Source: Escherichia phage vB_EcoP-CC1. Taken from it: a stretch of DNA of 44,532 nucleotides. The DNA lies in the sequence record OX457022. One strand, 5' to 3'. Under the pieces are notes generated by a model. The model had not been told where the DNA came from. It searched no databases and was given only the letters and a program-made list of their open reading frames with translations. Made by a program: the position numbers and the translations under genes. This document shows, one piece after another, positions 4,142 to 28,857 of this stretch. Position 1 is the stretch's first letter; each line of letters begins with the position of its first letter.

Positions 4142-4270
4142 ATGGAGATGCTTGAGATGATTCTCAAGCCTTCTTCTCCGAAAGTAACTAAGACTCATGA
4201 AGAGTTAATCGTAGATGAAGTGAAGCGTTACATTATGGATTGTGTCAAGGCACAACTGGTAGTCCAATGA
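4142..4270 (+). CDS. Hypothetical 42-aa protein
   Basis: GAGGGG precedes the ATG at 4142. The stop overlaps the next start (ATGA at 4267-4270). Confidence 0.4.
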   Translation: MEMLEMILKPSSPKVTKTHEELIVDEVKRYIMDCVKAQLVVQ

Positions 4271-4728
4271 TACGTCAAGCATCTTTCTTAGATATACCTG
4301 AGATTATTAATCTAGGCGACAAGTATGTAGAAGAGGAAGTTAAGGTAGTAGCACACCACTCTCCTTCATGGAATGCAGAACAAAGCGCAGCAAACCTGTG
4401 TGCATCTCTTGTCCGAGATGATTTATTCTTATGGGTTGCTGTAGATGAGGGAATCATTGTAGGATTCCTATGGGCTGGGTATCATGACTTAGCACCTTGG
4501 ACACCAGTGCGTGTTGCATCTGATATTCTTTTCTACATCGTACCAGAGAAGCGTGGCACTCTCTTAGGAATGAGACTTATCAAAGCCTATAAGCAATGGG
4601 CTTTTGAGAAGGAATGTGCTGAAGTGAGACTGTCTATTGCCTCTGGTATCAATGAAGAGCGTGTTGGGCGTATGTATGAGCGGTTAGGCTTTGAGACGTT
4701 CGGCACTGTGTATAACCTGAAACTTTAA
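4267..4728 (+). CDS. GNAT-family N-acetyltransferase
   Basis: EKRGTLLGMRLI resembles the acetyl-CoA motif A (R/QxxGxG/A-like), and MYERLGFE is present at the C-terminus. The start is translationally coupled. Confidence 0.75.
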   Translation: MIRQASFLDIPEIINLGDKYVEEEVKVVAHHSPSWNAEQSAANLCASLVRDDLFLWVAVDEGIIVGFLWAGYHDLAPWTPVRVASDILFYIVPEKRGTLLGMRLIKAYKQWAFEKECAEVRLSIASGINEERVGRMYERLGFETFGTVYNLKL

Positions 4729-4948: not shown

Positions 4949-6499
4949 ATGATGCAAGACACCGACCTTGAGTATGGTGGAAAGCGGTCGAAGATACCTA
5001 AGTTGTGGGAGAAGCTATCTACTAAGCGCAGTCCTTTCATGGACAGGGCAAAGCACTATGCGAGGTTGACTTTGCCATACCTCATGAATGAGGAGGGAGA
5101 CAACAATACTTCTCAGAATGGGTGGCAAGGTGTAGGTGCACAGGCCACTAACCACTTAGCTAACAAGTTAGCACAAGTTCTCTTCCCTGCTCAACGCTCT
5201 TTCTTCCGAGTTGACTTGACAGCAAAAGGGGAGAAGATATTAAACAACAGAGGTCTTAAGAAGACCAAATTAGCTACGCTGTTTGCTCAAGTAGAGACTG
5301 CTGCTATGAAGCAACTAGAGCAGCGGCAGTTCCGCCCAGCGGTGGTAGAATGCTTCAAGCATTTGATTGTTGCAGGTAACTGTATGCTGTACAAGCCAAG
5401 CAAGGGTGCAATCAGTGCGATACCTATGCATCACTATGTAGTTAATCGAGATGCTAATGGGGAACTGCTGGATATTATCTTACTACAAGAGAAGGCGCTA
5501 AAGACATTCGACCCTGCAACTCGCATGGCTATTGAAGTAGGCATGAAAGGTAAGAAGTGCAAAGACAGTGATAATGTAAAACTCTACACACACGCCAAGT
5601 ATGAGGGTGAAGGTTTTTGGGAATTAAATCAATCAGCAGATGATATTCCTATTGGTAAATCTAGCAGAATCAAGGCTGATAAACTCCCATTCATCCCTCT
5701 TACTTGGAAGAGGTCTTATGGAGAAGATTGGGGTCGCCCTCTTGCAGAGGATTATTCTGGAGATTTATTCGTAATCCAATTCCTGTCTGAAGCGGTTGCG
5801 CGTGGCGCTGCTTTGATGGCCGACATTAAATACCTGATTCGTCCAGGTGCTCAGACAGATGTAGACCACTTTGTTAACTCAGGAACAGGCGAAGTAATCA
5901 CTGGTGTGGAAGAGGACATCCATATCGTACAACTAGGCAAGTATGCAGACCTAACACCAATAAGTGCTGTACTAGAGGTTTATACCAGACGCATCGGCGT
6001 AGTCTTTATGATGGAGACTATGACACGACGAGATGCAGAACGTGTAACTGCTGTAGAGATACAGCGAGATGCTCTTGAGATTGAGCAGAACATGGGTGGC
6101 GTATACTCACTCTTTGCTACGACTATGCAGACACCCGTGGCTATGTGGGGTTTGCTTGATGCCGGAGACTCTTTCACCAGTGACCTAGTAGATCCTGTTA
6201 TCATCACAGGTATTGAAGCATTAGGTCGCATGGCAGAGTTGGATAAGCTGGCTAACTTCGCTCAGTATATGGCATTACCTATGAGTTGGCCTGAGCCAGT
6301 ACAGGCAGCGGTGAACTGGCCTGATTATATGGATTGGGTTCGTGGTCAGATCTCCGCTGAACTTCCATTCCTAAAATCAGAAGAGCAGATGAAGAAAGAG
6401 CAAGCACAGATGGCACAAGCACAGCAAGAGCAGATGCTTAATGAAGGAGTAGCTAAAGCTGTACCTGGTGTCATTCAACAAGAACTTAAGGAGGCGTAA
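4949..6499 (+). CDS. Portal (head-tail connector) protein
   Basis: At 516 aa it sits immediately upstream of the scaffold and capsid genes, as in the T7/SP6 order. Confidence 0.85.
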   Translation: MMQDTDLEYGGKRSKIPKLWEKLSTKRSPFMDRAKHYARLTLPYLMNEEGDNNTSQNGWQGVGAQATNHLANKLAQVLFPAQRSFFRVDLTAKGEKILNNRGLKKTKLATLFAQVETAAMKQLEQRQFRPAVVECFKHLIVAGNCMLYKPSKGAISAIPMHHYVVNRDANGELLDIILLQEKALKTFDPATRMAIEVGMKGKKCKDSDNVKLYTHAKYEGEGFWELNQSADDIPIGKSSRIKADKLPFIPLTWKRSYGEDWGRPLAEDYSGDLFVIQFLSEAVARGAALMADIKYLIRPGAQTDVDHFVNSGTGEVITGVEEDIHIVQLGKYADLTPISAVLEVYTRRIGVVFMMETMTRRDAERVTAVEIQRDALEIEQNMGGVYSLFATTMQTPVAMWGLLDAGDSFTSDLVDPVIITGIEALGRMAELDKLANFAQYMALPMSWPEPVQAAVNWPDYMDWVRGQISAELPFLKSEEQMKKEQAQMAQAQQEQMLNEGVAKAVPGVIQQELKEA

Positions 6500-7407
6500 T
6501 GTCTTTTGAAATTATTAATGAACCTGTAAGTCAGTCTGACGTTACTGAACCTAAGGAGGTTGCTGATGTTACTACTACCGACACTGATTCTACTGTTGAT
6601 TCTTCTGGCAGCGATGTACAAGCTGACACAGGCAGTGCAGACGTACAAGACACCGGAGGAGCTGATATTGGAGGAGATGCAGGACAAGGAGAAGCATCTA
6701 GTGGATCGGATGATAAACCTGAGCCAGATGGTTCCTCGGACGAAGATGTACGATTCTTCTTTGGCGAACAAGAAGTAGAGATTGAAATCCCTGAAGATGT
6801 CTCCTCTGCCTTGAAAGAGAAAGGCATTGATGCAATGCAGGTAGCCAAGGAGCTTTACGGTGAAGGTGGCAAGTTTGAACTTACGGAAGAGACAAAGCAG
6901 AAGCTGTATGATGCATTTGGCAAGTTCGCAGTAGACGCTTATCTGAATGGACTGAAAGCATCTAACGAGGCATTCCTGATTAAATCTGAAGCTCAAGCTA
7001 AAGAAGCAGAAGCAGCAGATGCCCAACGCTTTACCGATATTGCATCGGAAGTTGGCGGAGAAGAAGGCTGGTCACGACTAGAAGAGTGGGCGCTAGAGAC
7101 GCTGTCTGATGAAGAATTAGCAGCCTTCAATGCAGTGATGGCCTCAGGTAATCAGTACCTGCAACAGTATGCTGTGCGTGAGCTGGAAGGTCGCCGTAAG
7201 CAAGCACAGGGCGATGACAAGCCATCATTGATTGAGCCGTCAGCACCTGCGAAGGCTAATGATGAGAACAGCCCACTTACGAGAGATCAGTATGTCCGAG
7301 CTATCGCAACTCTTAGCCAGAAATATGGTAATGACCGTAAAGCTATGGCGGAGGCTCAGGCGAAACTTGACGCTCGCCGTCGTGCTGGTATGGCTCGCGG
7401 ACTGTAA
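6499..7407 (+). CDS. Scaffolding protein
   Basis: This acidic, helix-rich 302-aa protein lies between portal and capsid. Its start overlaps the portal stop (TAATG). Confidence 0.8.
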   Translation: MSFEIINEPVSQSDVTEPKEVADVTTTDTDSTVDSSGSDVQADTGSADVQDTGGADIGGDAGQGEASSGSDDKPEPDGSSDEDVRFFFGEQEVEIEIPEDVSSALKEKGIDAMQVAKELYGEGGKFELTEETKQKLYDAFGKFAVDAYLNGLKASNEAFLIKSEAQAKEAEAADAQRFTDIASEVGGEEGWSRLEEWALETLSDEELAAFNAVMASGNQYLQQYAVRELEGRRKQAQGDDKPSLIEPSAPAKANDENSPLTRDQYVRAIATLSQKYGNDRKAMAEAQAKLDARRRAGMARGL

Positions 7408-7413
7408 TTCAGT

Positions 7414-7436
7414 ATTTACTGGACACTATAGAAGGG
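7414..7436 (+). promoter_or_regulatory. Phage RNAP promoter (ATTTACTGGACACTATAGAAGGG), capsid promoter
   Basis: It is a consensus match, with +1 G at 7431. Confidence 0.9.
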
Positions 7437-7485
7437 AGAAAACTCTCCCTAGTTATCAATTTGATTTATAAGGAGATTATAATAC

Positions 7486-8685
7486 ATGTCTACACCGAAC
7501 ACTCTGACTAACGTTGCTGTGTCCGCATCTGGTGAGGTTGACAGCCTTCTTATTGAGAAGTTTAATGGTAAGGTAAACGAGCAGTACCTGAAAGGTGAGA
7601 ACATTCTGTCCTACTTTGATGTACAGACGGTAACTGGTACTAACACGGTTAGCAATAAATATTTAGGTGAAACTGAGTTGCAGGTGTTAGCACCGGGTCA
7701 GTCACCTAATGCTACTCCAACTCAGGCCGATAAAAACCAGTTGGTAATTGATACCACTGTGATCGCCCGTAACACCGTGGCACACATCCACGACGTACAG
7801 GGTGACATCGACAGCCTTAAGCCTAAGTTGGCTATGAACCAAGCCAAGCAACTGAAGCGTCTGGAAGACCAGATGGCAATCCAGCAGATGCTGTTAGGTG
7901 GCATCGCTAACACCAAAGCAAAGCGTAACAAACCTCGTGTAAAAGGACACGGCTTCTCTATCAACGTTAACGTGACTGAAAGTGAAGCACTGGCTAACCC
8001 GCAGTATGTCATGGCTGCTGTAGAATATGCTCTGGAGCAGCAGCTTGAACAGGAAGTGGATATCTCTGATGTAGCGATCCTGATGCCGTGGAAATTCTTC
8101 AACTCGCTGCGTGACGCAGACCGCATTGTAGATAAGACTTACACTATTAGTCAGTCCGGTGCTACTATCAGTGGCTTTGTTCTGTCTTCCTACAACTGCC
8201 CTGTTATCCCGTCTAACCGATTCCCGACATTTGTACAGAGTGCTCCACATCACTTACTGTCTAACGAAGATAACGGTTATCGTTATGACCCTACCGCAGA
8301 GATGAACGGCGCTGTAGCTGTGCTGTTTACTGCTGATGCATTGCTGGTAGGTCGCACCATTGAAGTAACAGGTGACATCTTCTATGAGAAGAAAGAGAAG
8401 ACTTACTATATTGATACCTTCATGGCTGAAGGTGCAATCCCTGACCGCTGGGAGGCTGTGTCTGTAGTTACTACTAAACGTAATGCAGGTACTGGTGCGG
8501 CTGACGGTGCAGGCGACGATCACGCAACCGTACTGGCTCGTGCACAGCGTAAGGCTGTCTACGTCAAGACCGCAGGTGCTGCCGCATTATCCGCCGCTAG
8601 CCTGCAAGCAGAAGACTTAGTAGCCGCTGTACGTGCTGTAATGGCTAATGACGTCAAGCCGACTGCACTGAAACCTACTGAGTAA
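7486..8685 (+). CDS. Major capsid protein
   Basis: It has a strong SD, its own promoter and a downstream terminator, and occupies the gp10 position. Confidence 0.9.
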   Translation: MSTPNTLTNVAVSASGEVDSLLIEKFNGKVNEQYLKGENILSYFDVQTVTGTNTVSNKYLGETELQVLAPGQSPNATPTQADKNQLVIDTTVIARNTVAHIHDVQGDIDSLKPKLAMNQAKQLKRLEDQMAIQQMLLGGIANTKAKRNKPRVKGHGFSINVNVTESEALANPQYVMAAVEYALEQQLEQEVDISDVAILMPWKFFNSLRDADRIVDKTYTISQSGATISGFVLSSYNCPVIPSNRFPTFVQSAPHHLLSNEDNGYRYDPTAEMNGAVAVLFTADALLVGRTIEVTGDIFYEKKEKTYYIDTFMAEGAIPDRWEAVSVVTTKRNAGTGAADGAGDDHATVLARAQRKAVYVKTAGAAALSAASLQAEDLVAAVRAVMANDVKPTALKPTE

Positions 8686-18600: not shown

Positions 18601-19425
18601 AAGAGATTAAAGCAGCACTTGATGGGTGAGAGACAATTACCTAAAGCAGACCTTGAAGAAGTAGGCCTAAGTGAAGATGTCATGAAAAGACTTAAGCGTC
18701 ACTTTGATGACAACCCTCTGTACGCTGAGTACAATGGAGAAAAAGTTCGTATGCTGAACTTTGATGCTATGGAGCCAGACCTGAGAGAGACAGTGGGTGT
18801 TGCTGTGCGAAGAATGTCAGGCCGTCTTATTCAACGTAACTTCATTGGCGATGAAGGTATCTGGATGAATAAATGGTGGGGTAAGGCATTAACGCAGTTT
18901 AAGTCATTCTCTATTGTCTCTATTGAGAAACAGCTAATCCATGATTTACGAGGTGATAAGATTCAGGCTGCACAGATACTTGCATGGTCTACTTTACTAG
19001 GTTATGCATCTTATGCACTACAGATGCAGATGCAAGCGATTGGTAGGGAGGATAGAGACAAGTTCTTGAGGGATAAGTTTGACACACAGAACATCGCTAT
19101 GGGTGTCTTTAATAAACTTCCACAAGTTGCAGGCTTTGGTTTAGCTGGTGATGCTTTGGCAACCTTTGGCCTAATGCCAGACTCCATGATGCAAGCACCG
19201 GGACGCATGGGTTTCCGTCAGCAAGGCTTTGGGGATTTGGTAGCAGGTGCTGGTGTAATAAGTGATACAGTTAATTTGTCACAAGCACTGGTTAAGTATG
19301 CCAGTGGAGACGATGATGTCTCTACGAGGCAGTTGGTAGACAAGGTTCGTCGCCTTGTTCCTTTGGCAAATACTATTGGTGTGGGTCAGATGACTAAAGC
19401 CAGTGTAGATTTATTGGAGGATTGA
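15622..19425 (+). CDS. Internal virion protein C (gp16-position, 1267 aa)
   Basis: Called from size, synteny and the SD TAGGAGG. Confidence 0.8.
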   Translation: MVDSINQNWVAVTQRKLPPTFSQIAEAERKAEAQRANDKVFQTALESEWALYGGQRAYERHTTEFAEQEGYEVPESTKDELSKLYGYEIAQDIVKNVKSPEELQFRMSNAAADKDRADILARNGFTGFSAQIAAGILDPVGWAASLVAAPVAGAVKVGRLGRIIKTAALSGAENAALEAILAQGDYQRGVDDVLAAAGFGMIMGGTIGAATRERIASAGSRTAAERADAVVDDLDTVVKGADEFDSSAARAVREAMEYDAYMAARNYEPLRAREVDADMAILSHTDNLKANASVRMSASEKGQLKKQIRQLEAEAATLKGKKIDTVAEAAAAKGAPKSAADRLDLDVQKKALARRFDEPLADLQARLDELNAKLSRVNNVGKAKEELKRFSSLSREEQIKELGLDAPVRKVEMTRAVRDAIDAIRAERKKTPTEIHAEQVAEDAIKQRADDSVGAKRVEGSEIAGEQFDLSKNMEELMDDLAREAYQSEVRPINLKGLGSVSSVILNSENPVFRGLGLRLLENAQGGAYQGKTASILSDVYGNLIRHAERNRYNDGFSQFIKDNNLRAVDYLNPATTRDFNNQIYTAIVRGIPEDTPRGVKLAAEGIADKLKKALEIRKQAGERGFEDVQSAKDYIPVIYDGIKITEAVNKLGSSEAVIHLLSKGYQTGKYKLGKKAADALAKVQYIRASDSTLSSRVAFDRVVSQQQQAQLIEDLKKAGVPDHIIDNFIEGTELAEMAESVSNRAKASMGINTQAEYGGLKVQDLLNTNVGELAENYGKEAAGGAALAAMGFPTRQSVLNAIDAAERAGRNMAGSNAKAIKQLRAEAEMLRDAVKLIYGNTIDADPNSGIVRGTRRVREITGLLRLGQMGFAQIPELARAISKMGLGTVLKSIPATKFLRSRAARKGGTAQGELLEPELREMEELLGYIGEDNWLTGWNVRHDEFGETADNLGKLSAIIDNGLAMGSRINTILSGFKAVQGGSEKIVARSINKRLKQHLMGERQLPKADLEEVGLSEDVMKRLKRHFDDNPLYAEYNGEKVRMLNFDAMEPDLRETVGVAVRRMSGRLIQRNFIGDEGIWMNKWWGKALTQFKSFSIVSIEKQLIHDLRGDKIQAAQILAWSTLLGYASYALQMQMQAIGREDRDKFLRDKFDTQNIAMGVFNKLPQVAGFGLAGDALATFGLMPDSMMQAPGRMGFRQQGFGDLVAGAGVISDTVNLSQALVKYASGDDDVSTRQLVDKVRRLVPLANTIGVGQMTKASVDLLED

Positions 19426-22400
19426 TGAGTTATACATATACAGACCATGTAGCTAATGGCTCACAGGTTACATTCCCTTTTCGTTTTGCAGGCAGAGATA
19501 AGGCATACATTAGTGCGACAGATGTCCAAGTGGGTTTTGTAGAAGCAGGCACTTGGCTGCCAGCAACAGGTTGGACGCTAAGTGGCACCAATCAGATCAC
19601 TTTCTTAACCCCACCGACAGAAGGTAAACAAATACGAATCAGACGTATTGTAGATAAAATAAACCCATATGCTTACTTCGAGCGGGGTAATGTTTTAGAT
19701 ATTAACTCTTTAAATAACTCATTCATTAAGAACCTGCAAGTCAGTCAAGAAATCCTTGATGGCTTCTTCCCAGAAGGTTTCTACTTCAAGACAGACTTAG
19801 ACATGGGTGGTCATAAGATCATAAACCTACATGAAGGTTCGGAGTCAGGTGATGCTGTAAATTATGATCAGTTTAAAGAGTTATCAGACCGCGTTAATGA
19901 GATTGAGTCAGATTTAACAGGTTTATCTCACAGAACAGTACCTATGTATTATATTGCAACTGGCGGAGAGTCACGTTGGGAGATCGGTCACTGGACTTTC
20001 GACGCTGCAATATTATTTATTAATGGTATATTCCAGAACCAAAACCTAGGAGCTTTTACCATCAGCAACAACGGTTTTAACTTTGCAGAACCATTGCAGA
20101 AGGGGGATGAAGTATATGCCCTTGTAGGAAGCCGCATTGCAGCACCCGATGAGTATGTAACAATCTCTGACTTGAAAGACCCAGATAAAGCATGGAGGCT
20201 AATTGGACGTAAGTACCCATTTGCGACAGATGGAACTTTTATGTCAAAAGTGGTACATGATGTAGACTACTCCAATATCTTCATTGGAGCATCAGGACTT
20301 AGTCAAGGCTTCTGTATTGTAGACACTCCGCAAGGTGCTCGCATGTTCTTCCATCAACCTATCCCAAGCACTAATAAGGTTCGTTTCGTTGAAACAACCT
20401 TTAACCCTGAAGGGGATAATGAAAATCCTTCTGTTATTTCATTCAGCCAGGAACTGGATGATATTGGACACCAGACTGTGTGTGGTGTATATGAGGCGGG
20501 GGGTGTGCGTTTGTACACCTTGAGTGCAGATGAAAAATCTTATTATATCATAGATTGGTTAGGTAATAATACGTCTAATGCACATATGCGTAAGGTGCAG
20601 ATCCCTACGGAGGGTATCTACTCTAAGGACTTATTTGTCTCAGTGGGCATGTCAGAAGATACTAAAACGCTGGTATTCCATGCAACCACCAATACTCAGG
20701 CTTTTGGTAACAAGGATGATGCGAGAGCTATTTACCTCTTCGATAGAAAAACATTGGATTCAACCTCAACTAGAGGTCTTAAGCGTAGATTCGAAGTAGG
20801 AGCACCTGCTGCACCAGATATGGTCTTCCAAGGGGTTGCTTGTGATGACCGCTTCTTGTATATATATCAGGGATATAATGGTGTCCTGCTGTCTCACAAG
20901 ATCTCCGTCTTCACCCTCTCAGGGGAGCATGTACGGGATATTCCCGTTGATAGTGTGCGTGTAAAATATGGAGAAAGGATGTATGGTGACGAAACTTTAG
21001 GGTATCCTGTATTGCAGGAACCGGAAGGTTTGGCAATGTATAAAGGCAAACTTTATATGTTGTGTATGGATTTCTGGTACAAGAATGCAAGTGTAGTTAC
21101 TTTCGCTGGCAGGACTTTTGCTACAAGGAAATCTTCAGCGTTTTCTGGGTACAGTCCATTACAAGCATCATATTGGACACCTACGAACCTAATACCACCT
21201 ACGGGTGCACCAGAGTATAACAAGACTGCTACTTATTCCTGCTCTAATGCTACTAAGCTCAGTAAAGCTATTGTTAGCTTAGAAATAGATGATGGCACAG
21301 GCTTCCCTGCAAGTGTTGGGTGTTCTTTGCCAGAGAGTAGCGCCAGTGTATACCTAAACAACCGAGCGATGAATATGGCTATTGGCCCGAATGAAAACTT
21401 CCAGTTTGGGGTATTTCACCAGAACCTACAGTCATACAAAAACCTGTTACAGCTCAATAGAGAGAACCCAAATACGGATGGATCAGCGGCTGTGTGGAGG
21501 TTGTTCGGAGGTGCGTTCACAGATGACATTCAGAATGAAAGATTTGTTCAGATTAAGCATAGACTTAATCCCACACAAGATGCCATGGAGCTTCGTGCGG
21601 ATGTTGACCTTACGAGCGGTGGTGGGATTAACTTGTATTCTATGAACGACTCTGCCTCTCCTGGTCGAGTAAGGCTATATTGTACTGACGGGTATTCTTA
21701 TTGGTCAGCTCTACTGAGTCCTGTATCCCCATCTTTTCACCCTGATCAAGATAAGACTCTAAACTTAGGTACAGCAAACAACCGTTGGAACCTAGTCCAT
21801 TGTCAAGGTATCCGTATCATCTCTAACGACGAGTTACAGAAGCAAGTCTTTCTTGAAACTACCCGTAAAAAAGGTGCACTACAGATCTCCACTTCCGGCA
21901 ATCTAGGGGTGTGGGATAGTAGCGCAGGTACTTATGTTGTGGCAACCAGACCTGATGGTACAGGCTTTTCACAGGTAGAGATGAGCTTCAAAGGTGATGT
22001 TTTTCCTGAAATAAATAATACTTACAATTTAGGTCGTGAGAATAAGGCATGGGCTAATGCCTACTTTCAAAACGCACCGACTGTTGTCTGTGATGCCAGA
22101 CTTAAAACAGATGCTAGGGAGTTAACAGACGCAGAGAAATCCGCATTCTTAGAGATCTCTAAACTTCCGGCAGTTTGGCAATGGCTTGCTAAACTGGAAG
22201 TAGAAGGAGAGGATGCCCGCTTACACTCTGGATGTACTGTCCAAGCTGCTATCTCGGTTATGGAGAAACATGGCCTAGATTGGACTAAGTATAGTGCTTT
22301 CTGTTATGACAAATGGGATGCCAAGGAGGCTGTCTATGATATAGTGGATGGTAAGGCTATCCTTGTTGAAGAGGCAGTTGAGGCTGGCGACCGTTATCGT

Positions 22401-22508
22401 CTTCGTAGAGAAGAGCTGATGTGGTGGTGCATGAAGGCACAGAATGCTTGGATTGAATCTATTGAGGGGAGGCTGGCGAAATTAGAAGATAAACTCAAGG
22501 AGGTGTAA
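19425..22508 (+). CDS. Tail fibre/tailspike 1: T7 gp17-like N-terminal anchor, unassigned central domain, C-terminal S74-type intramolecular chaperone
   Basis: The N-terminus MSYTYTDHVANGSQVTFPFRF...GHKIINL...GDAVNYDQF fits the T7 tail-fibre N-terminal pattern. The C-terminus NLGRENKAWANAYFQNAPTVVCDARLKTD fits the G....W...Y.......SD.RLK junction, but with Cys in place of Ser. Confidence 0.85.
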   Translation: MSYTYTDHVANGSQVTFPFRFAGRDKAYISATDVQVGFVEAGTWLPATGWTLSGTNQITFLTPPTEGKQIRIRRIVDKINPYAYFERGNVLDINSLNNSFIKNLQVSQEILDGFFPEGFYFKTDLDMGGHKIINLHEGSESGDAVNYDQFKELSDRVNEIESDLTGLSHRTVPMYYIATGGESRWEIGHWTFDAAILFINGIFQNQNLGAFTISNNGFNFAEPLQKGDEVYALVGSRIAAPDEYVTISDLKDPDKAWRLIGRKYPFATDGTFMSKVVHDVDYSNIFIGASGLSQGFCIVDTPQGARMFFHQPIPSTNKVRFVETTFNPEGDNENPSVISFSQELDDIGHQTVCGVYEAGGVRLYTLSADEKSYYIIDWLGNNTSNAHMRKVQIPTEGIYSKDLFVSVGMSEDTKTLVFHATTNTQAFGNKDDARAIYLFDRKTLDSTSTRGLKRRFEVGAPAAPDMVFQGVACDDRFLYIYQGYNGVLLSHKISVFTLSGEHVRDIPVDSVRVKYGERMYGDETLGYPVLQEPEGLAMYKGKLYMLCMDFWYKNASVVTFAGRTFATRKSSAFSGYSPLQASYWTPTNLIPPTGAPEYNKTATYSCSNATKLSKAIVSLEIDDGTGFPASVGCSLPESSASVYLNNRAMNMAIGPNENFQFGVFHQNLQSYKNLLQLNRENPNTDGSAAVWRLFGGAFTDDIQNERFVQIKHRLNPTQDAMELRADVDLTSGGGINLYSMNDSASPGRVRLYCTDGYSYWSALLSPVSPSFHPDQDKTLNLGTANNRWNLVHCQGIRIISNDELQKQVFLETTRKKGALQISTSGNLGVWDSSAGTYVVATRPDGTGFSQVEMSFKGDVFPEINNTYNLGRENKAWANAYFQNAPTVVCDARLKTDARELTDAEKSAFLEISKLPAVWQWLAKLEVEGEDARLHSGCTVQAAISVMEKHGLDWTKYSAFCYDKWDAKEAVYDIVDGKAILVEEAVEAGDRYRLRREELMWWCMKAQNAWIESIEGRLAKLEDKLKEV

Positions 22509-24881: not shown

Positions 24882-24904
24882 ATTTACTGGACACTATAGG
24901 AGGA
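24882..24904 (+). promoter_or_regulatory. Phage RNAP promoter (ATTTACTGGACACTATAGGAGGA)
   Basis: It is a consensus match that begins 2 nt after the terminase stop. Confidence 0.85.
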
Positions 24905-25037
24905 AGACCAAGAGAGTAAAAGGAATATTATAGGATAATATAGGATTACCTAGGTTATATAGGTGTACCTTAGTATGGGTGTACTCCTGTACACCTATTC
25001 TTACTTGCTATTTACTTATACGTATAAGGAGTATTAG

Positions 25038-25319
25038 ATGGCTAATGATTATAGTAATCAGCCCTTAACTGGTCGCTATGACCGTAAACAGATTACACCA
25101 ACTAGTGAAGCATTAATGCTCCCTGTTGTTACAGAGGAGTCTATTAAGAAGAAAGCCAATGTTATCAATGATGCAACCAAATCTGGTAAACAGAAAGCAG
25201 CAATGGTGTGTCGTCCTGTAGGTGGCACTCTTGAGATTGCCATTGCTACTGGTAGCAAAGAGGATGCAGATTGGTTGTCTGTTAAAATGGATGGCGTTGG
25301 TTTTATTACACCGGCTTAA
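25038..25319 (+). CDS. SGKQ-module protein A (93 aa), unknown function
   Basis: It has a strong SD and is paralogous to the next two ORFs (see findings). Confidence 0.7.
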   Translation: MANDYSNQPLTGRYDRKQITPTSEALMLPVVTEESIKKKANVINDATKSGKQKAAMVCRPVGGTLEIAIATGSKEDADWLSVKMDGVGFITPA

Positions 25320-25336
25320 TAAAAGGAGAAGATAAT

Positions 25337-25624
25337 ATGTCTAAGTATGGCGATGCAGGTACGACTACTGGTCAGGCTTTTCGTGTAAAAGCAGTACAAA
25401 CTATTGCAACTGCAATCCCTATGCCTATCGTGGCAGAAGCTGACCTTAAAAAGAAAGATCATCCAATTAATATTGAACACCTATCTGGTAAGCAGAAAGG
25501 TGCTATGGTGGTTGTAGATAAAGGAGATAATAGCCTTTATATTGCTATTGCACGTGGTTCTGCACCAACTGACCAGTGGGATGTAACTACTATGGAAGCT
25601 GTACCTGTAACACCAGGAGCTTAA
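25337..25624 (+). CDS. SGKQ-module protein B (95 aa), unknown function
   Basis: It has a strong SD and is paralogous to proteins A and C. Confidence 0.7.
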   Translation: MSKYGDAGTTTGQAFRVKAVQTIATAIPMPIVAEADLKKKDHPINIEHLSGKQKGAMVVVDKGDNSLYIAIARGSAPTDQWDVTTMEAVPVTPGA

Positions 25625-25625
25625 T

Positions 25626-26315
25626 ATGCTGGGAGTAACAGGACAACGCAATAAGAATGTAGCCACCAAAGTAGTGGCTGATTTAGCTACTGCTGCTACT
25701 GTCGAGGAATTACGAGACACACATAACTCTATTAACCGTGCTGACCTTTCTGGTAAACAAGAAGGTTCTGTTGTTCTTGTTAAGAAAGAGGATGGCAACT
25801 ATTCTATCTTTGTAGCAACAGGTAGCAAGCCTACTGATGTTTGGAAAGAGTTGTCTCCAACAATACCAGAGCAAGAGATGCCTGCTGAATATATTGATAT
25901 GGTTGATATTCAAATTCATCAAGACTCTGCAAGTAACTTACGTATGGATTCTTCTCGCACGAGCTTAATACAAACACCAATGTGGGATACTGAAGGTGAA
26001 TTGCTATTCCGTAATACCCTGAGCGCAACATGTTCTTGTACCATTCTTGCTGACGGTGCATCTGGTGTTCGTCAGGATTTTAATTTTAAGATTAATGGAA
26101 TCTTAGAGCAAGAAGAGCAGTATTATGACATTGACACTCTTATGTGCTCTATTCATTCTGCAACAACAACTAATGGTCTTACACTGTGTATGCCAGATGT
26201 TAAGAGCGCAAAGACCAATAAGATGGTAGTAAAGGTCGACACTATGCAGTCATTAACAATGAGTTTTGATCTTAACTTCCTTGTTGAATGGACGTCACCT
26301 ACGAGGTTACTATAA
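25626..26315 (+). CDS. SGKQ-module protein C (229 aa: module plus a C-terminal domain of about 140 aa), unknown function
   Basis: The SD is AGGAG. The N-terminal 75 aa are paralogous to proteins A and B. Confidence 0.7.
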   Translation: MLGVTGQRNKNVATKVVADLATAATVEELRDTHNSINRADLSGKQEGSVVLVKKEDGNYSIFVATGSKPTDVWKELSPTIPEQEMPAEYIDMVDIQIHQDSASNLRMDSSRTSLIQTPMWDTEGELLFRNTLSATCSCTILADGASGVRQDFNFKINGILEQEEQYYDIDTLMCSIHSATTTNGLTLCMPDVKSAKTNKMVVKVDTMQSLTMSFDLNFLVEWTSPTRLL

Positions 26316-26659
26316 TGCTAAACGAATACTTCAAGCGTAAAGAATTTGCTTGCCGTTGTGGGTGCGGTACATCCACTGTTGATGCTGAGTTACTACAGGT
26401 AGTAACAGATGTGCGTGAGCACTTTGGTGCTCCTGTGGTTATTACTTCTGGTCATCGTTGCGCCAAGCACAATGCTAATGTAGGTAGAGCTAAGAACTCC
26501 ATGCATCTTACTGGTAAGGCTGCTGACATTAAGGTCACTGGTGTTAGCCCAATGGAGGTACGTGCGTACCTATGCAATAAGTACACTGATAAGTATGGCA
26601 TTGGTGCTTATCCTACTTTTACACATATCGACGTTAGAGGTAACAAAGCACGATGGTAG
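26315..26659 (+). CDS. Endolysin, zinc peptidase M15 family
   Basis: The start is a TAATG overlap. FACRCGCG...SGHRCAKHN...MHLTGKAADI...FTHIDV gives the H/D/H zinc ligand pattern of Peptidase_M15. Confidence 0.85.
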   Translation: MLNEYFKRKEFACRCGCGTSTVDAELLQVVTDVREHFGAPVVITSGHRCAKHNANVGRAKNSMHLTGKAADIKVTGVSPMEVRAYLCNKYTDKYGIGAYPTFTHIDVRGNKARW

Positions 26660-27233: not shown

Positions 27234-27256
27234 ATTTACTGGACACTATAGAAGGA
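27234..27256 (+). promoter_or_regulatory. Phage RNAP promoter (ATTTACTGGACACTATAGAAGGA)
   Basis: It is a consensus match upstream of the second fibre gene. Confidence 0.85.
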
Positions 27257-27333
27257 GAGATAGTGCCGTTCATTTGAGCGGCCTATTACTAGCCAATCTT
27301 CATGGTGAGGGTTGGGAAGTAATAGGAGATAAC

Positions 27334-28857
27334 ATGGCTAAACTAACGAGAGTCACTGACTGGCTTGTTAAGGTAAAGTCCAGACTCACTGGTGCAGTAG
27401 AGCGACTGCTTGAAGATAAGTTAAATGACACGGTTAGTGTTAAGGACTTCGGTGCTAAGGGTGACGGTGTGACAGACGACACACAAGCATTTGCTGCCGC
27501 CTCAGCCGCATCGCCTCAAGGTGTTTATGTGCCTGACGGAACATATTTATTACCAGAAGATATTAATGGCAGGTTCTATGGTTCTGGTAAACGCATCAAG
27601 GCTGTAGGTGATGGTGGTATTCCTTTTACCAATGTAGCTCAGTCACATAGTAACCTAATATTAGGATATGATGCTGCAAAGGATTACACGGACGAAGGGA
27701 AAGGCAACCAATTAGTATTACTTGGCCCAAGCTCCGGTCGTAACCTTACCACTGGTACTAACTCCATTGTGGTAGGTGTTGGTGGCCTATCGGGTGATAC
27801 ATTAGAAGATGCACTAACAGATAAATCACCTTTCACTGGTACAGAGATTATTAGCATTGGTATCAATGCTCTTAAGAAAACTACCACTGGTAACAACATG
27901 ATTGGTATTGGTCGTGATGCCCTGAACGAGTGTAAGGATGGAAGATTCAACGTAGCTATAGGTATGTCTGCTTTGCAGCAGCTACACTCTGGTGAGGCTA
28001 ACGTAGCAATAGGGCGTTCAGCCGGTATGCGTACTGGCATCTTCACTAACGAAGATGGTGTACGATTAGGCTATACAAAATGTAGCGGTAATACCTTAAT
28101 AGGTAACGCGGCTGGTCGTGAATTGAAGTCAGGTAATCATAACACCGCCGTAGGCAATGGTGCTATGCGAGGTGTCAGTTCTGATATTAATCCATATACT
28201 GGCACTCTAGAGGGTAATTTTAATACAGCTATTGGTGTTGATACCTTAAACTCCTTAGCATCTGGTGAGTTGAACACCATGATTGGCGCAAGGGCTGGGC
28301 GTAAATTACCTAGTGGCTCTGGTAACATCTTCATCGGTGCGGATGCAGGTGCAGGTATTAACATTGAAAAGTCTAACACTCTCATTATTAACAACCACAC
28401 TGGCTTACCTTTCGTAGAAGGTATTATGGATGGTGCTCAGAGTGAGAATAACTACTTACGTGTTGATGGAAGTGTAGCACCTCAGATTGATAACACAAGA
28501 ACTTGTGGTCAGTCTAGCCGTAGATGGCAGACTGTCTTTTCTACCAATGGTGTTATCCAGACATCGGATGGACGATGCAAGGATGTCTACGATATTGCCA
28601 AGACGGAGTACATGGCTGGTCTAGAGTTATCTTCTAGTATGATTAAGTTCAAATGGACAGATACTAAAGAAGATAAGTATCACTTCGGTTGTCTGGCACA
28701 AGAGGTCATGCTGATTATGGAGAAACATGGGTTAAACCCTCTGGATTATTCCCTCGTTACCTATGATGCTGAAGCAGATATGTATGGTGTTAACTATGCA
28801 GAATTGTCTTGCTTCTGTATCGCAGCAATGTCCAATCATGTACTAGGCAGTGCGTAA
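27334..28857 (+). CDS. Tail fibre/tailspike 2 with a C-terminal S74-type chaperone
   Basis: AGGAG precedes the ATG at 27334. VKDFGAKGDGVTDDT is a pectate-lyase-3-type motif. About 9 repeats fit the N.(A/I/V)IG..A(L/G) pattern. The C-terminus reads RRWQTVFSTNGVIQTSDGRCKDV...YHFGCLAQEV. Confidence 0.8.
   Translation: MAKLTRVTDWLVKVKSRLTGAVERLLEDKLNDTVSVKDFGAKGDGVTDDTQAFAAASAASPQGVYVPDGTYLLPEDINGRFYGSGKRIKAVGDGGIPFTNVAQSHSNLILGYDAAKDYTDEGKGNQLVLLGPSSGRNLTTGTNSIVVGVGGLSGDTLEDALTDKSPFTGTEIISIGINALKKTTTGNNMIGIGRDALNECKDGRFNVAIGMSALQQLHSGEANVAIGRSAGMRTGIFTNEDGVRLGYTKCSGNTLIGNAAGRELKSGNHNTAVGNGAMRGVSSDINPYTGTLEGNFNTAIGVDTLNSLASGELNTMIGARAGRKLPSGSGNIFIGADAGAGINIEKSNTLIINNHTGLPFVEGIMDGAQSENNYLRVDGSVAPQIDNTRTCGQSSRRWQTVFSTNGVIQTSDGRCKDVYDIAKTEYMAGLELSSSMIKFKWTDTKEDKYHFGCLAQEVMLIMEKHGLNPLDYSLVTYDAEADMYGVNYAELSCFCIAAMSNHVLGSA

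Follow-up and report, generated by a model that had tools for sequence, protein, structure and literature searches.

Three consecutive genes of Escherichia phage vB_EcoP-CC1, here called A, B and C, encode paralogous proteins for which we give a somewhat better than even chance to the following reading: they form a trimeric anchor on the virion, most likely as a capsid decoration, with A and B as bare anchors and C carrying a knob directed outward. The proteins are neither new nor without a family, and homologues are listed in a preprint as minor capsid proteins. Several features appear to be unreported in the literature searched. These are the occurrence of the underlying module once or three times per chain, together with the use of one base in single-chain pseudo-trimers and in collagen-like or coiled-coil fibres alike, the lack of a solved structural relative, and the nature of the third gene as an exchangeable, dispensable slot.

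The cassette and its expression signals

The window referred to below is the whole stretch of DNA that was analysed (44,532 nucleotides, sequence record OX457022), and the features of the cassette are listed here by their coordinates in it.

24882 to 24902, + strand: SP6-type phage RNA-polymerase promoter of the cassette, ATTTACTGGACACTATAGGAG, an exact match to the query 21-mer
24975 to 24998, + strand: G+C-rich hairpin of 10 bp in the leader, with a T-rich tract after it (terminator scan and centroid fold)
25038 to 25319, + strand: gene A, 93 aa, a bare 'SGKQ' module; orthologue of K1E gp41, SP6 gp41 and Kp7 gp45
25337 to 25624, + strand: gene B, 95 aa, a bare 'SGKQ' module; orthologue of K1E gp42, SP6 gp42 and Kp7 gp46
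25626 to 26315, + strand: gene C, whole, 229 aa
25626 to 25877, + strand: gene C, N-terminal part (aa 1-84), a third 'SGKQ' module and a short low-confidence linker
25878 to 26315 including the stop codon, + strand: gene C, C-terminal domain (aa 85-229), a predicted all-beta sandwich, possibly of the fibre-knob type; the part that varies ('display' part)

The same cassette was found with 100% identity in vB_EcoP-CC2 (OX638290.1; Autographiviridae, Molineuxvirinae, Vectrevirus), whose record is circularly permuted relative to the window. A preliminary description of this DNA had reported three ORFs of 93, 95 and 229 aa with tight spacing and a promoter of their own, and all of this was confirmed. 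The ORFs lie on the + strand as described, genes A and B are separated by 17 nt and genes B and C by 1 nt, and the stop codon of C overlaps the start codon of the M15 endolysin gene in a TAATG at 26315. The 21-mer, to which the promoter at 24882 is identical, had 9 matches at ≤3 mismatches in the window, versus 0 in 100 shuffles; other copies of this SP6-type promoter include those at 7414, 5' of the major capsid gene (7486-8685), and at 27234, 5' of fibre 2. All three genes are preceded by strong ribosome-binding sites of the AGGAG type (AAGGAG at 25026-25031 for A, AAGGAG at 25323-25328 for B and AGGAG at 25615-25619 for C). Late structural expression fits these observations, as the cassette has the promoter type of the capsid and fibre genes together with strong ribosome-binding sites.

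The leader had also been described as structured, which is true of one element but not of the whole: its folding showed no more structure than that of shuffled sequence (z = -0.07), whereas the single 10-bp hairpin at 24975-24998 is terminator-like. A terminator is annotated at the position of this hairpin in the near-identical R4596 record and at the equivalent place in Vibrio phage phi-A318. The hairpin is listed here as a putative element, either terminator-like or an RNA-stabilising stem.

Paralogy, family membership and annotation

Pairwise BLASTP comparison gave 41% identity between A and B (E 4e-12), 39% between B and C (E 6e-12) and 39% between A and C (E 1e-6), so that A, B and C are paralogues far beyond chance, as the preliminary description had proposed from a shared stretch of about 55 aa. 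The shared module comprises about 85 aa and consists of an N-terminal 'TGxxxK/R' arm, a small alpha/beta core with an N....SGK motif, a conserved Trp and a C-terminal 'TPA'. A module HMM matched gene A with E 8e-30 and aa 2-87 of gene C with E 9e-28, and when it was applied to A, B and C together with gp45-47 of Klebsiella phage Kp7, all six proteins were matched with E 1e-25 to 1e-37. Genes of the A type and of the B type fall into separate orthologous groups, each conserved across genera; the cross-phage best match of gene A was always the first gene of a cassette, and 103 close relatives of gene B were found, many of them on contigs of about 44 kb.

The opinion that these proteins belong to no recognisable family had to be given up, because A and B match PHROG 2725 (E 2e-37 and 7e-45, respectively) and C matches PHROG 32357 (E 7e-123). 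Gene A shares 62% identity with K1E gp41 and gene B shares 83% with K1E gp42, and by profile match and by position between the large terminase (TerL) and endolysin genes, A and B are assigned as orthologues of K1E gp41 and gp42. The synteny of the cassette is common to K1E (gp41/gp42), SP6 (gp41/42/42.3), Pectobacterium phage PP1 (gp43-45) and Kp7, and the K1E, SP6 and PP1 genes are likewise orthologous to A and B. These phages differ in the third gene, which is absent from K1E, disrupted in SP6 and a bare module in PP1, in contrast to the extended C of the present phage. The module was detected by tblastn in 178 of 50,697 phage records, SP6 and K1E included, with 1-3 detectable copies per genome and with hosts that include Escherichia, Klebsiella, Salmonella, Proteus, Vibrio, Pseudomonas and Pectobacterium. 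At every locus inspected the module gene was located 3' of the large terminase gene.

Homologues in K1E, PP1 and phi-A318 carry the label 'acetyl-CoA acetyltransferase' in RefSeq and PHROG. A thiolase was defined here by the Pfam domains PF00108 and PF02803, a length of about 390 aa and catalytic Cys and His residues, and A, B and C do not conform to this definition. The Pfam scan of A, B and C returned no family, thiolase included, even at E up to 1, and the NCBIfam and PADLOC scans returned no meaningful match and nothing related to defence. Thiolases have about 390 aa, so that A and B, with 93-95 aa, are about a quarter of that length. The thiolase identity was rejected because these scans were empty and because A and B are far too short. 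One further candidate, phi-A318 gp41 (558 aa), was considered as a module-bearing enzyme and rejected, since it lacks the module and is a normal tailspike of the pectate-lyase type.

The T7-type tail-fibre N-terminal anchor (Phage_T7_tail, PF03906) was also searched for with Pfam, and no match was found in A, B or C; on related contigs this domain is part of a different gene, for an adaptor or fibre, that lies upstream of the terminase gene. When A, B and C, each alone, and two profiles, one of which included Kp7 gp45-47, were searched against the sequences of the PDB, no solved member of the family was recovered, and the module had no detectable sequence or fold similarity to solved proteins. 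In particular, no fold match was found to the solved decoration folds of lambda gpD/SHP, T4 Soc, phage L Dec (OB-fold), the N-domain of T5 pb10 or the base of phi29 gp8.5.

Architecture of the family

A profile of the C family was searched against 1.84 billion representative proteins and gave 110 matches. The set used with the module HMM comprised 109 cluster representatives, namely the profile matches minus the closest relatives of C plus two further relatives. Among these 109, chains carry either one module, which is always N-terminal, or three modules; three were found in 31 chains, two in 2, and more than three in none. The three-module chains can be aligned repeat by repeat, each repeat with a 'GDxxxK' arm followed by the pattern PVV..DL...IN....SGKxxG...A.GS.P..W....ITP. 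For one of them, P0133, the AlphaFold2 model has a pLDDT of 85.7 and a pTM of 0.83. Three independently tumbling domains could not give such a pTM, and therefore the modules of P0133 are predicted to pack as one defined body; this pTM is also what suggests that the packing may be three-fold.

One of the three-module genes lies directly 3' of a T7-type TerL, which is the position of A, B and C, and another protein, P0223, consists of three modules and one C-terminal domain of 133 aa and is thus a single-chain analogue of A+B+C. When HMMs specific to each fused repeat were compared with A, B and C, B corresponded to repeat 2 in 6 of 6 cases and C to repeat 3 in 4 of 5, and A did not correspond to repeat 1.

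Other members of the family carry a variety of distal parts. P0169, P0198 and a gene on contig L012 have the module followed by long collagen-like G-X-Y runs, P0194 has the module and a predicted coiled coil, and several other members have a poly-glycine linker followed by domains of about 215-270 aa without a Pfam match. The collagen triple helix consists of three chains, a pattern with which a coiled coil would also agree if it were trimeric. Taken together, the fused, collagen-like and coiled-coil members suggest that the base functions in threes and that the distal domains which it holds are variable. The number of module genes per genome ranges from 1 to 4, with four found in one metagenomic genome.

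Gene C and the variable third slot

The AlphaFold2 model of C has moderate confidence overall (pLDDT 70), with values of 80-88 for aa 21-70 and of less than 50 for the hinge at aa 79-84, which is predicted to be disordered. In this model the C-terminal domain (aa 85-229) is all-beta, with a possible resemblance to the receptor-binding tips of fibres. It was found in 19 phage records only, all of them Escherichia, Klebsiella, Salmonella or Citrobacter phages of 42.9-44.9 kb. The preliminary description had singled out this domain as Cys-containing, but the cysteines of C vary in homologues at 57-60% identity, and being unconserved they do not constitute a functional feature.

The third slot itself is changeable. 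Some phages lack C even though their A and B are about 93% identical at the DNA level to those described here, and frameshifted or truncated variants of C are present in contigs of 8.5-45 kb. The third gene of SP6 (42.3) is a disrupted copy, the intact counterpart of which is found in Salmonella phage Kenya-K31, and in Kp7 the third slot is occupied by an Ig-domain protein. Judged by these sequence comparisons, the third gene is variable and dispensable.

Klebsiella phage Kp7 and the virion evidence

The cassette of Klebsiella phage Kp7 (Molineuxvirinae; GenBank ON148527) consists of TerL, three genes of 88, 88 and 178 aa, and the M15 endolysin gene. It agrees with that of vB_EcoP-CC1 in position, in the module and in the order of two bare members followed by one extended member; it differs in that gp47 carries an Ig domain and C an unrelated beta-sandwich of about 145 aa, and the module identity between the two phages is merely 28-48%. 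In the alignment of Kp7 gp45-47 with A, B and C, the residues TG, N, SGKQ, A, W and P are invariant. The Kp7 genes are named in GenBank as 'minor capsid protein' (two genes) and 'minor capsid protein with Ig-domain' (gp47).

All three Kp7 proteins, gp45, gp46 and gp47, were detected when bands from purified virions were analysed by mass spectrometry, and the authors list them as minor capsid proteins, separately from the tail proteins (bioRxiv 10.1101/2024.05.19.594906). The word 'capsid' in that list may reflect how the authors annotated these proteins and not where they were seen. By homology with the proteins of Kp7, the one phage in which presence in the virion was measured, A, B and C are probable virion components, which lends support to that part of the preliminary description. 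A literature search for proteomics or cryo-EM of SP6-like capsids returned nothing beyond the Kp7 preprint, and no cryo-EM study of a Molineuxvirinae capsid was found.

The Ig domain of gp47, which accounted for the only real matches in the PDB sequence searches, matched Pfam Ig_3 (E 3e-7) and Ig_2 and is related in sequence to the C-terminal domain of pb10, the decoration protein of T5 (PDB 8zvi, E 9e-9; 5lxk, E 3e-8). An Ig-type display domain was searched for in C with Pfam and no match was found, and C is therefore considered to share the architecture of gp47 but not its domain. The position of pb10 is given as the hexamer centres in PMC5292684.

Proposed model and alternatives

For A, B and C we infer trimer formation, a location on the capsid rather than on the tail, a binding site there and an adhesin role of the knob. 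In the model that we favour, A, B and C would be late-expressed structural proteins, all built on the one module of about 85 aa, and modules would join in threes to form a compact base, either as an A-B-C heterotrimer or as a homotrimer of each paralogue. The base would attach to the outer face of the virion in the role of a decoration or cement protein; its most probable location is the T=7 capsid shell, where it would dock at a three-fold-type or hexamer-centre site. A and B would be bases without a display part, and the beta-sandwich knob of C, on its short linker, would be directed away from the shell. In this model C may be a short head fibre or adhesin that binds weakly to host or environmental surface glycans, a role akin to that of T4 Hoc, T5 pb10 and the phi29 head fibres, and the third gene would serve as an exchangeable and dispensable slot of the cassette.

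Known capsid proteins offer parallels to both halves of this model. T5 pb10 and T4 Hoc follow the same two-part logic of a small capsid-binding domain and a dispensable display domain, and the Ig domain of Kp7 gp47 is related in sequence to that of pb10, whereas the display domain of C is not Ig. Both pb10 and Hoc bind the capsid as monomers, while the anchor module described here appears to work in threes. In the latter respect, lambda gpD, phage L Dec, T4 Soc and phi29 gp8.5, which are trimeric or occupy three-fold-type sites, are comparable to the proposed three-part base, and phi29 gp8.5 and Dec would also resemble some members of the family in having a base with a trimeric shaft and a distal domain.

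How the three paralogues would combine is a separate question. The preliminary description had suggested a hetero-oligomer, and this is plausible in the light of natural chains with three modules, one of which was modelled as a compact body; an obligatory 1:1:1 stoichiometry is not required and homotrimers are equally possible, given that genomes carry from 1 to 4 copies and that C is not always among them. A possible variant of our model, with which it overlaps and which we hold only tentatively, has three kinds of homotrimer that occupy different quasi-equivalent sites of the T=7 shell or compete for the same sites. The variable copy number per genome and the presence or absence of C beside near-identical A and B are in keeping with this variant, as are the collagen-like members, which have to be homotrimeric, given that the repeat is missing from the paralogues beside them. 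Knob folds such as the adenovirus fibre heads and reovirus sigma1 are homotrimers, which is a further point in its favour. Against it, the natural fusions of three diverged modules, including P0223 with its single distal domain, indicate that a unit of three different modules works, and the conserved gene order and tight spacing fit equal stoichiometry.

To our knowledge, phages of the SP6/K1E type in the T7 supergroup are usually regarded as having undecorated heads. A more far-reaching form of our model, which is correspondingly more speculative, is that the heads of these phages carry a trimeric capsid anchor, hitherto unrecognised and novel in structure, onto which head fibres with knob, Ig, collagen-like or coiled-coil parts can be plugged. 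In vB_EcoP-CC1 this anchor would be an asymmetric A-B-C heterotrimer with a single knob and would provide a second, capsid-borne adhesion system by which binding to the host or the environment is tuned independently of the tailspikes.

The main rival to capsid decoration places these proteins on the tail or neck, where the module, as a trimeric anchor, would be attached to the tail, adaptor or collar, and C would be a short side fibre aiding adsorption. We consider it rather unlikely, but it is the main rival because the plan of base, shaft and knob is also that of tail fibres and because a homologue with a coiled coil lies in the tailspike slot. Homologues do show a tail-fibre-like plan of module, collagen-like or coiled-coil shaft and distal domain; P0194 and its neighbour are found 3' of the spanin genes, which is the slot of the tailspike in K1E; and the modelled C-terminal domain of C would be akin to receptor-binding fibre tips. 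In addition, a 'putative neck whiskers protein' (9occ, E 4e-4) is among the matches to the Ig region of Kp7 gp47, and one BFVD relative is annotated as 'tail fiber protein', by annotation only. Several observations argue in the other direction. As bare anchors A and B hold nothing, which is normal in decoration and cement proteins but odd in fibre anchors; the cassette occurs irrespective of how the tail fibres are organised; A, B and C match neither the T7-tail-fibre N-terminal family nor any other Pfam family; and the Kp7 authors grouped gp45-47 with the capsid and the tail proteins apart. Tail reconstructions of K1E, K1-5 and SP6 have reportedly been interpreted without such proteins, which also counts against a tail or neck location.

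This rival is the closest surviving version of an idea in the preliminary description, that the proteins are a docking platform for the second fibre. In that specific form the idea is not supported, as the cassette is present whatever the organisation of the tail fibres, with two copies in K1E (adaptor gp37 and one tailspike), three in SP6 and one in Vibrio phage phi-A318, and as C may be missing beside A and B that are about 93% identical and the Kp7 homologues are assigned to the capsid by the authors of that work.

That the proteins are non-structural, whether as an enzyme, as host-directed effectors (the other suggestion of the preliminary description) or as helpers of the adjacent lysis genes, has little beyond the 'acetyl-CoA acetyltransferase' label and the TAATG overlap with the endolysin gene to recommend it and is very improbable, given the late structural operon, the empty enzyme and defence scans, the short length of A and B relative to thiolases, the finding of the Kp7 homologues in virions, the collagen-like, Ig and knob domains of the family, which are typical of surface structures, and the fact that no hydrophobic segment of membrane-spanning length was noticed on reading the sequences.

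Implications for SP6-like phages

The 178 module-bearing phage records include those of the model phages SP6 and K1E and of several therapy candidates, and many of the 178 label the module as a metabolic enzyme; once this label is corrected, a spurious 'auxiliary metabolic gene' no longer enters into the safety assessment of therapeutic phages. The third gene would represent a small, dispensable and naturally modular display slot on T7-like capsids, which could be of use in phage display and engineering. If the trimer-anchor model is true, the family would be a new family of decoration proteins and head fibres without a solved structure, and it would provide a natural test of whether one fold can serve as a homotrimer, a heterotrimer and a single-chain pseudo-trimer. 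It also raises the question of what part capsid-borne knobs may play in the adsorption or the environmental retention of capsule-targeting phages.

Leader and downstream boundary of the cassette

The leader between the phage promoter (window 24882) and gene A was found to contain a terminator-like hairpin at 24975-24998, only about 75 nt downstream of the promoter yet 5' of gene A. Three or four 'ATATAGG'-like repeats resembling the promoter core lie between promoter and hairpin, at about 24925-24965. A terminator is likewise annotated between the large terminase gene (TerL) and the module gene of Vibrio phage phi-A318. The promoter-hairpin arrangement upstream of gene A may serve in attenuation, RNA stabilisation or processing.

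At the other end of the cassette, the longest ORF of the M15 endolysin (window 26288-26659) begins at 26288, within gene C, and the Peptidase_M15_3 match starts at residue 14 of this long form. The ATG at 26315, which overlaps the gene C stop (TAATG), was taken as the endolysin start in the annotations of CC2, R4596 and K1E.

Acetyltransferase and fibre genes

The following other genes of the window were considered.

4240-4728, GNAT-type acetyltransferase (PHROG 1249), just 5' of the portal gene
19422-22508, fibre 1 (1028 aa), tailspike body preceded by a tail-fibre anchor region at the N-terminus (aa 1-250, PHROG 2710)
27274-28857, fibre 2, with a C-terminal module similar to that of fibre 1

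In Klebsiella phage Kp7 the gene at the same place upstream of the portal, Kp7_31, is annotated as 'putative N-acetyltransferase'; the GNAT gene is unrelated to the genes mislabelled 'acetyl-CoA acetyltransferase'. Fibre 1 in CC2 occupies the position of the short adaptor gp37 in K1E, and PHROGs 1171, 7121 and 14895 each matched both fibres, in the C-terminal module.

Variation of the module genes

In SP6 (AY370673.1; 3298-3730), gene 42.3 (81 aa) represents an N-terminal remnant of a C-type gene. A full-length relative, P0130 (247 aa), matched SP6 as two separate segments that together account for 61% of P0130, and Salmonella phage Kenya-K31 has an intact counterpart of gene 42.3; the third gene is therefore disrupted in the SP6 reference sequence.

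Four adjacent module genes (5388-7820), with the endolysin gene 3' of them, were present in an SP6-like metagenomic genome (ENA ERZ14207102 NODE_12, a 44,971-bp contig), and two successive ones (518-2403) in Logan SRR24146884_454.

Module genes of the two sequences

NODE_12, within 5388-7820, genes 1 and 2: 95 aa and 95 aa
NODE_12, within 5388-7820, gene 3: 342 aa, poly-Gly linker and a domain of no known type
NODE_12, within 5388-7820, gene 4: 260 aa, collagen-like G-X-Y repeats and a beta-rich domain
SRR24146884_454, within 518-2403: 475 aa, then >153 aa, each module plus coiled coil

The module-plus-coiled-coil pair lies immediately 3' of holin/spanin-like genes, a slot in which K1E keeps its tailspike genes. 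Of the observations, this coiled-coil pair and its position speak most for a tail-fibre-like role in part of the family.
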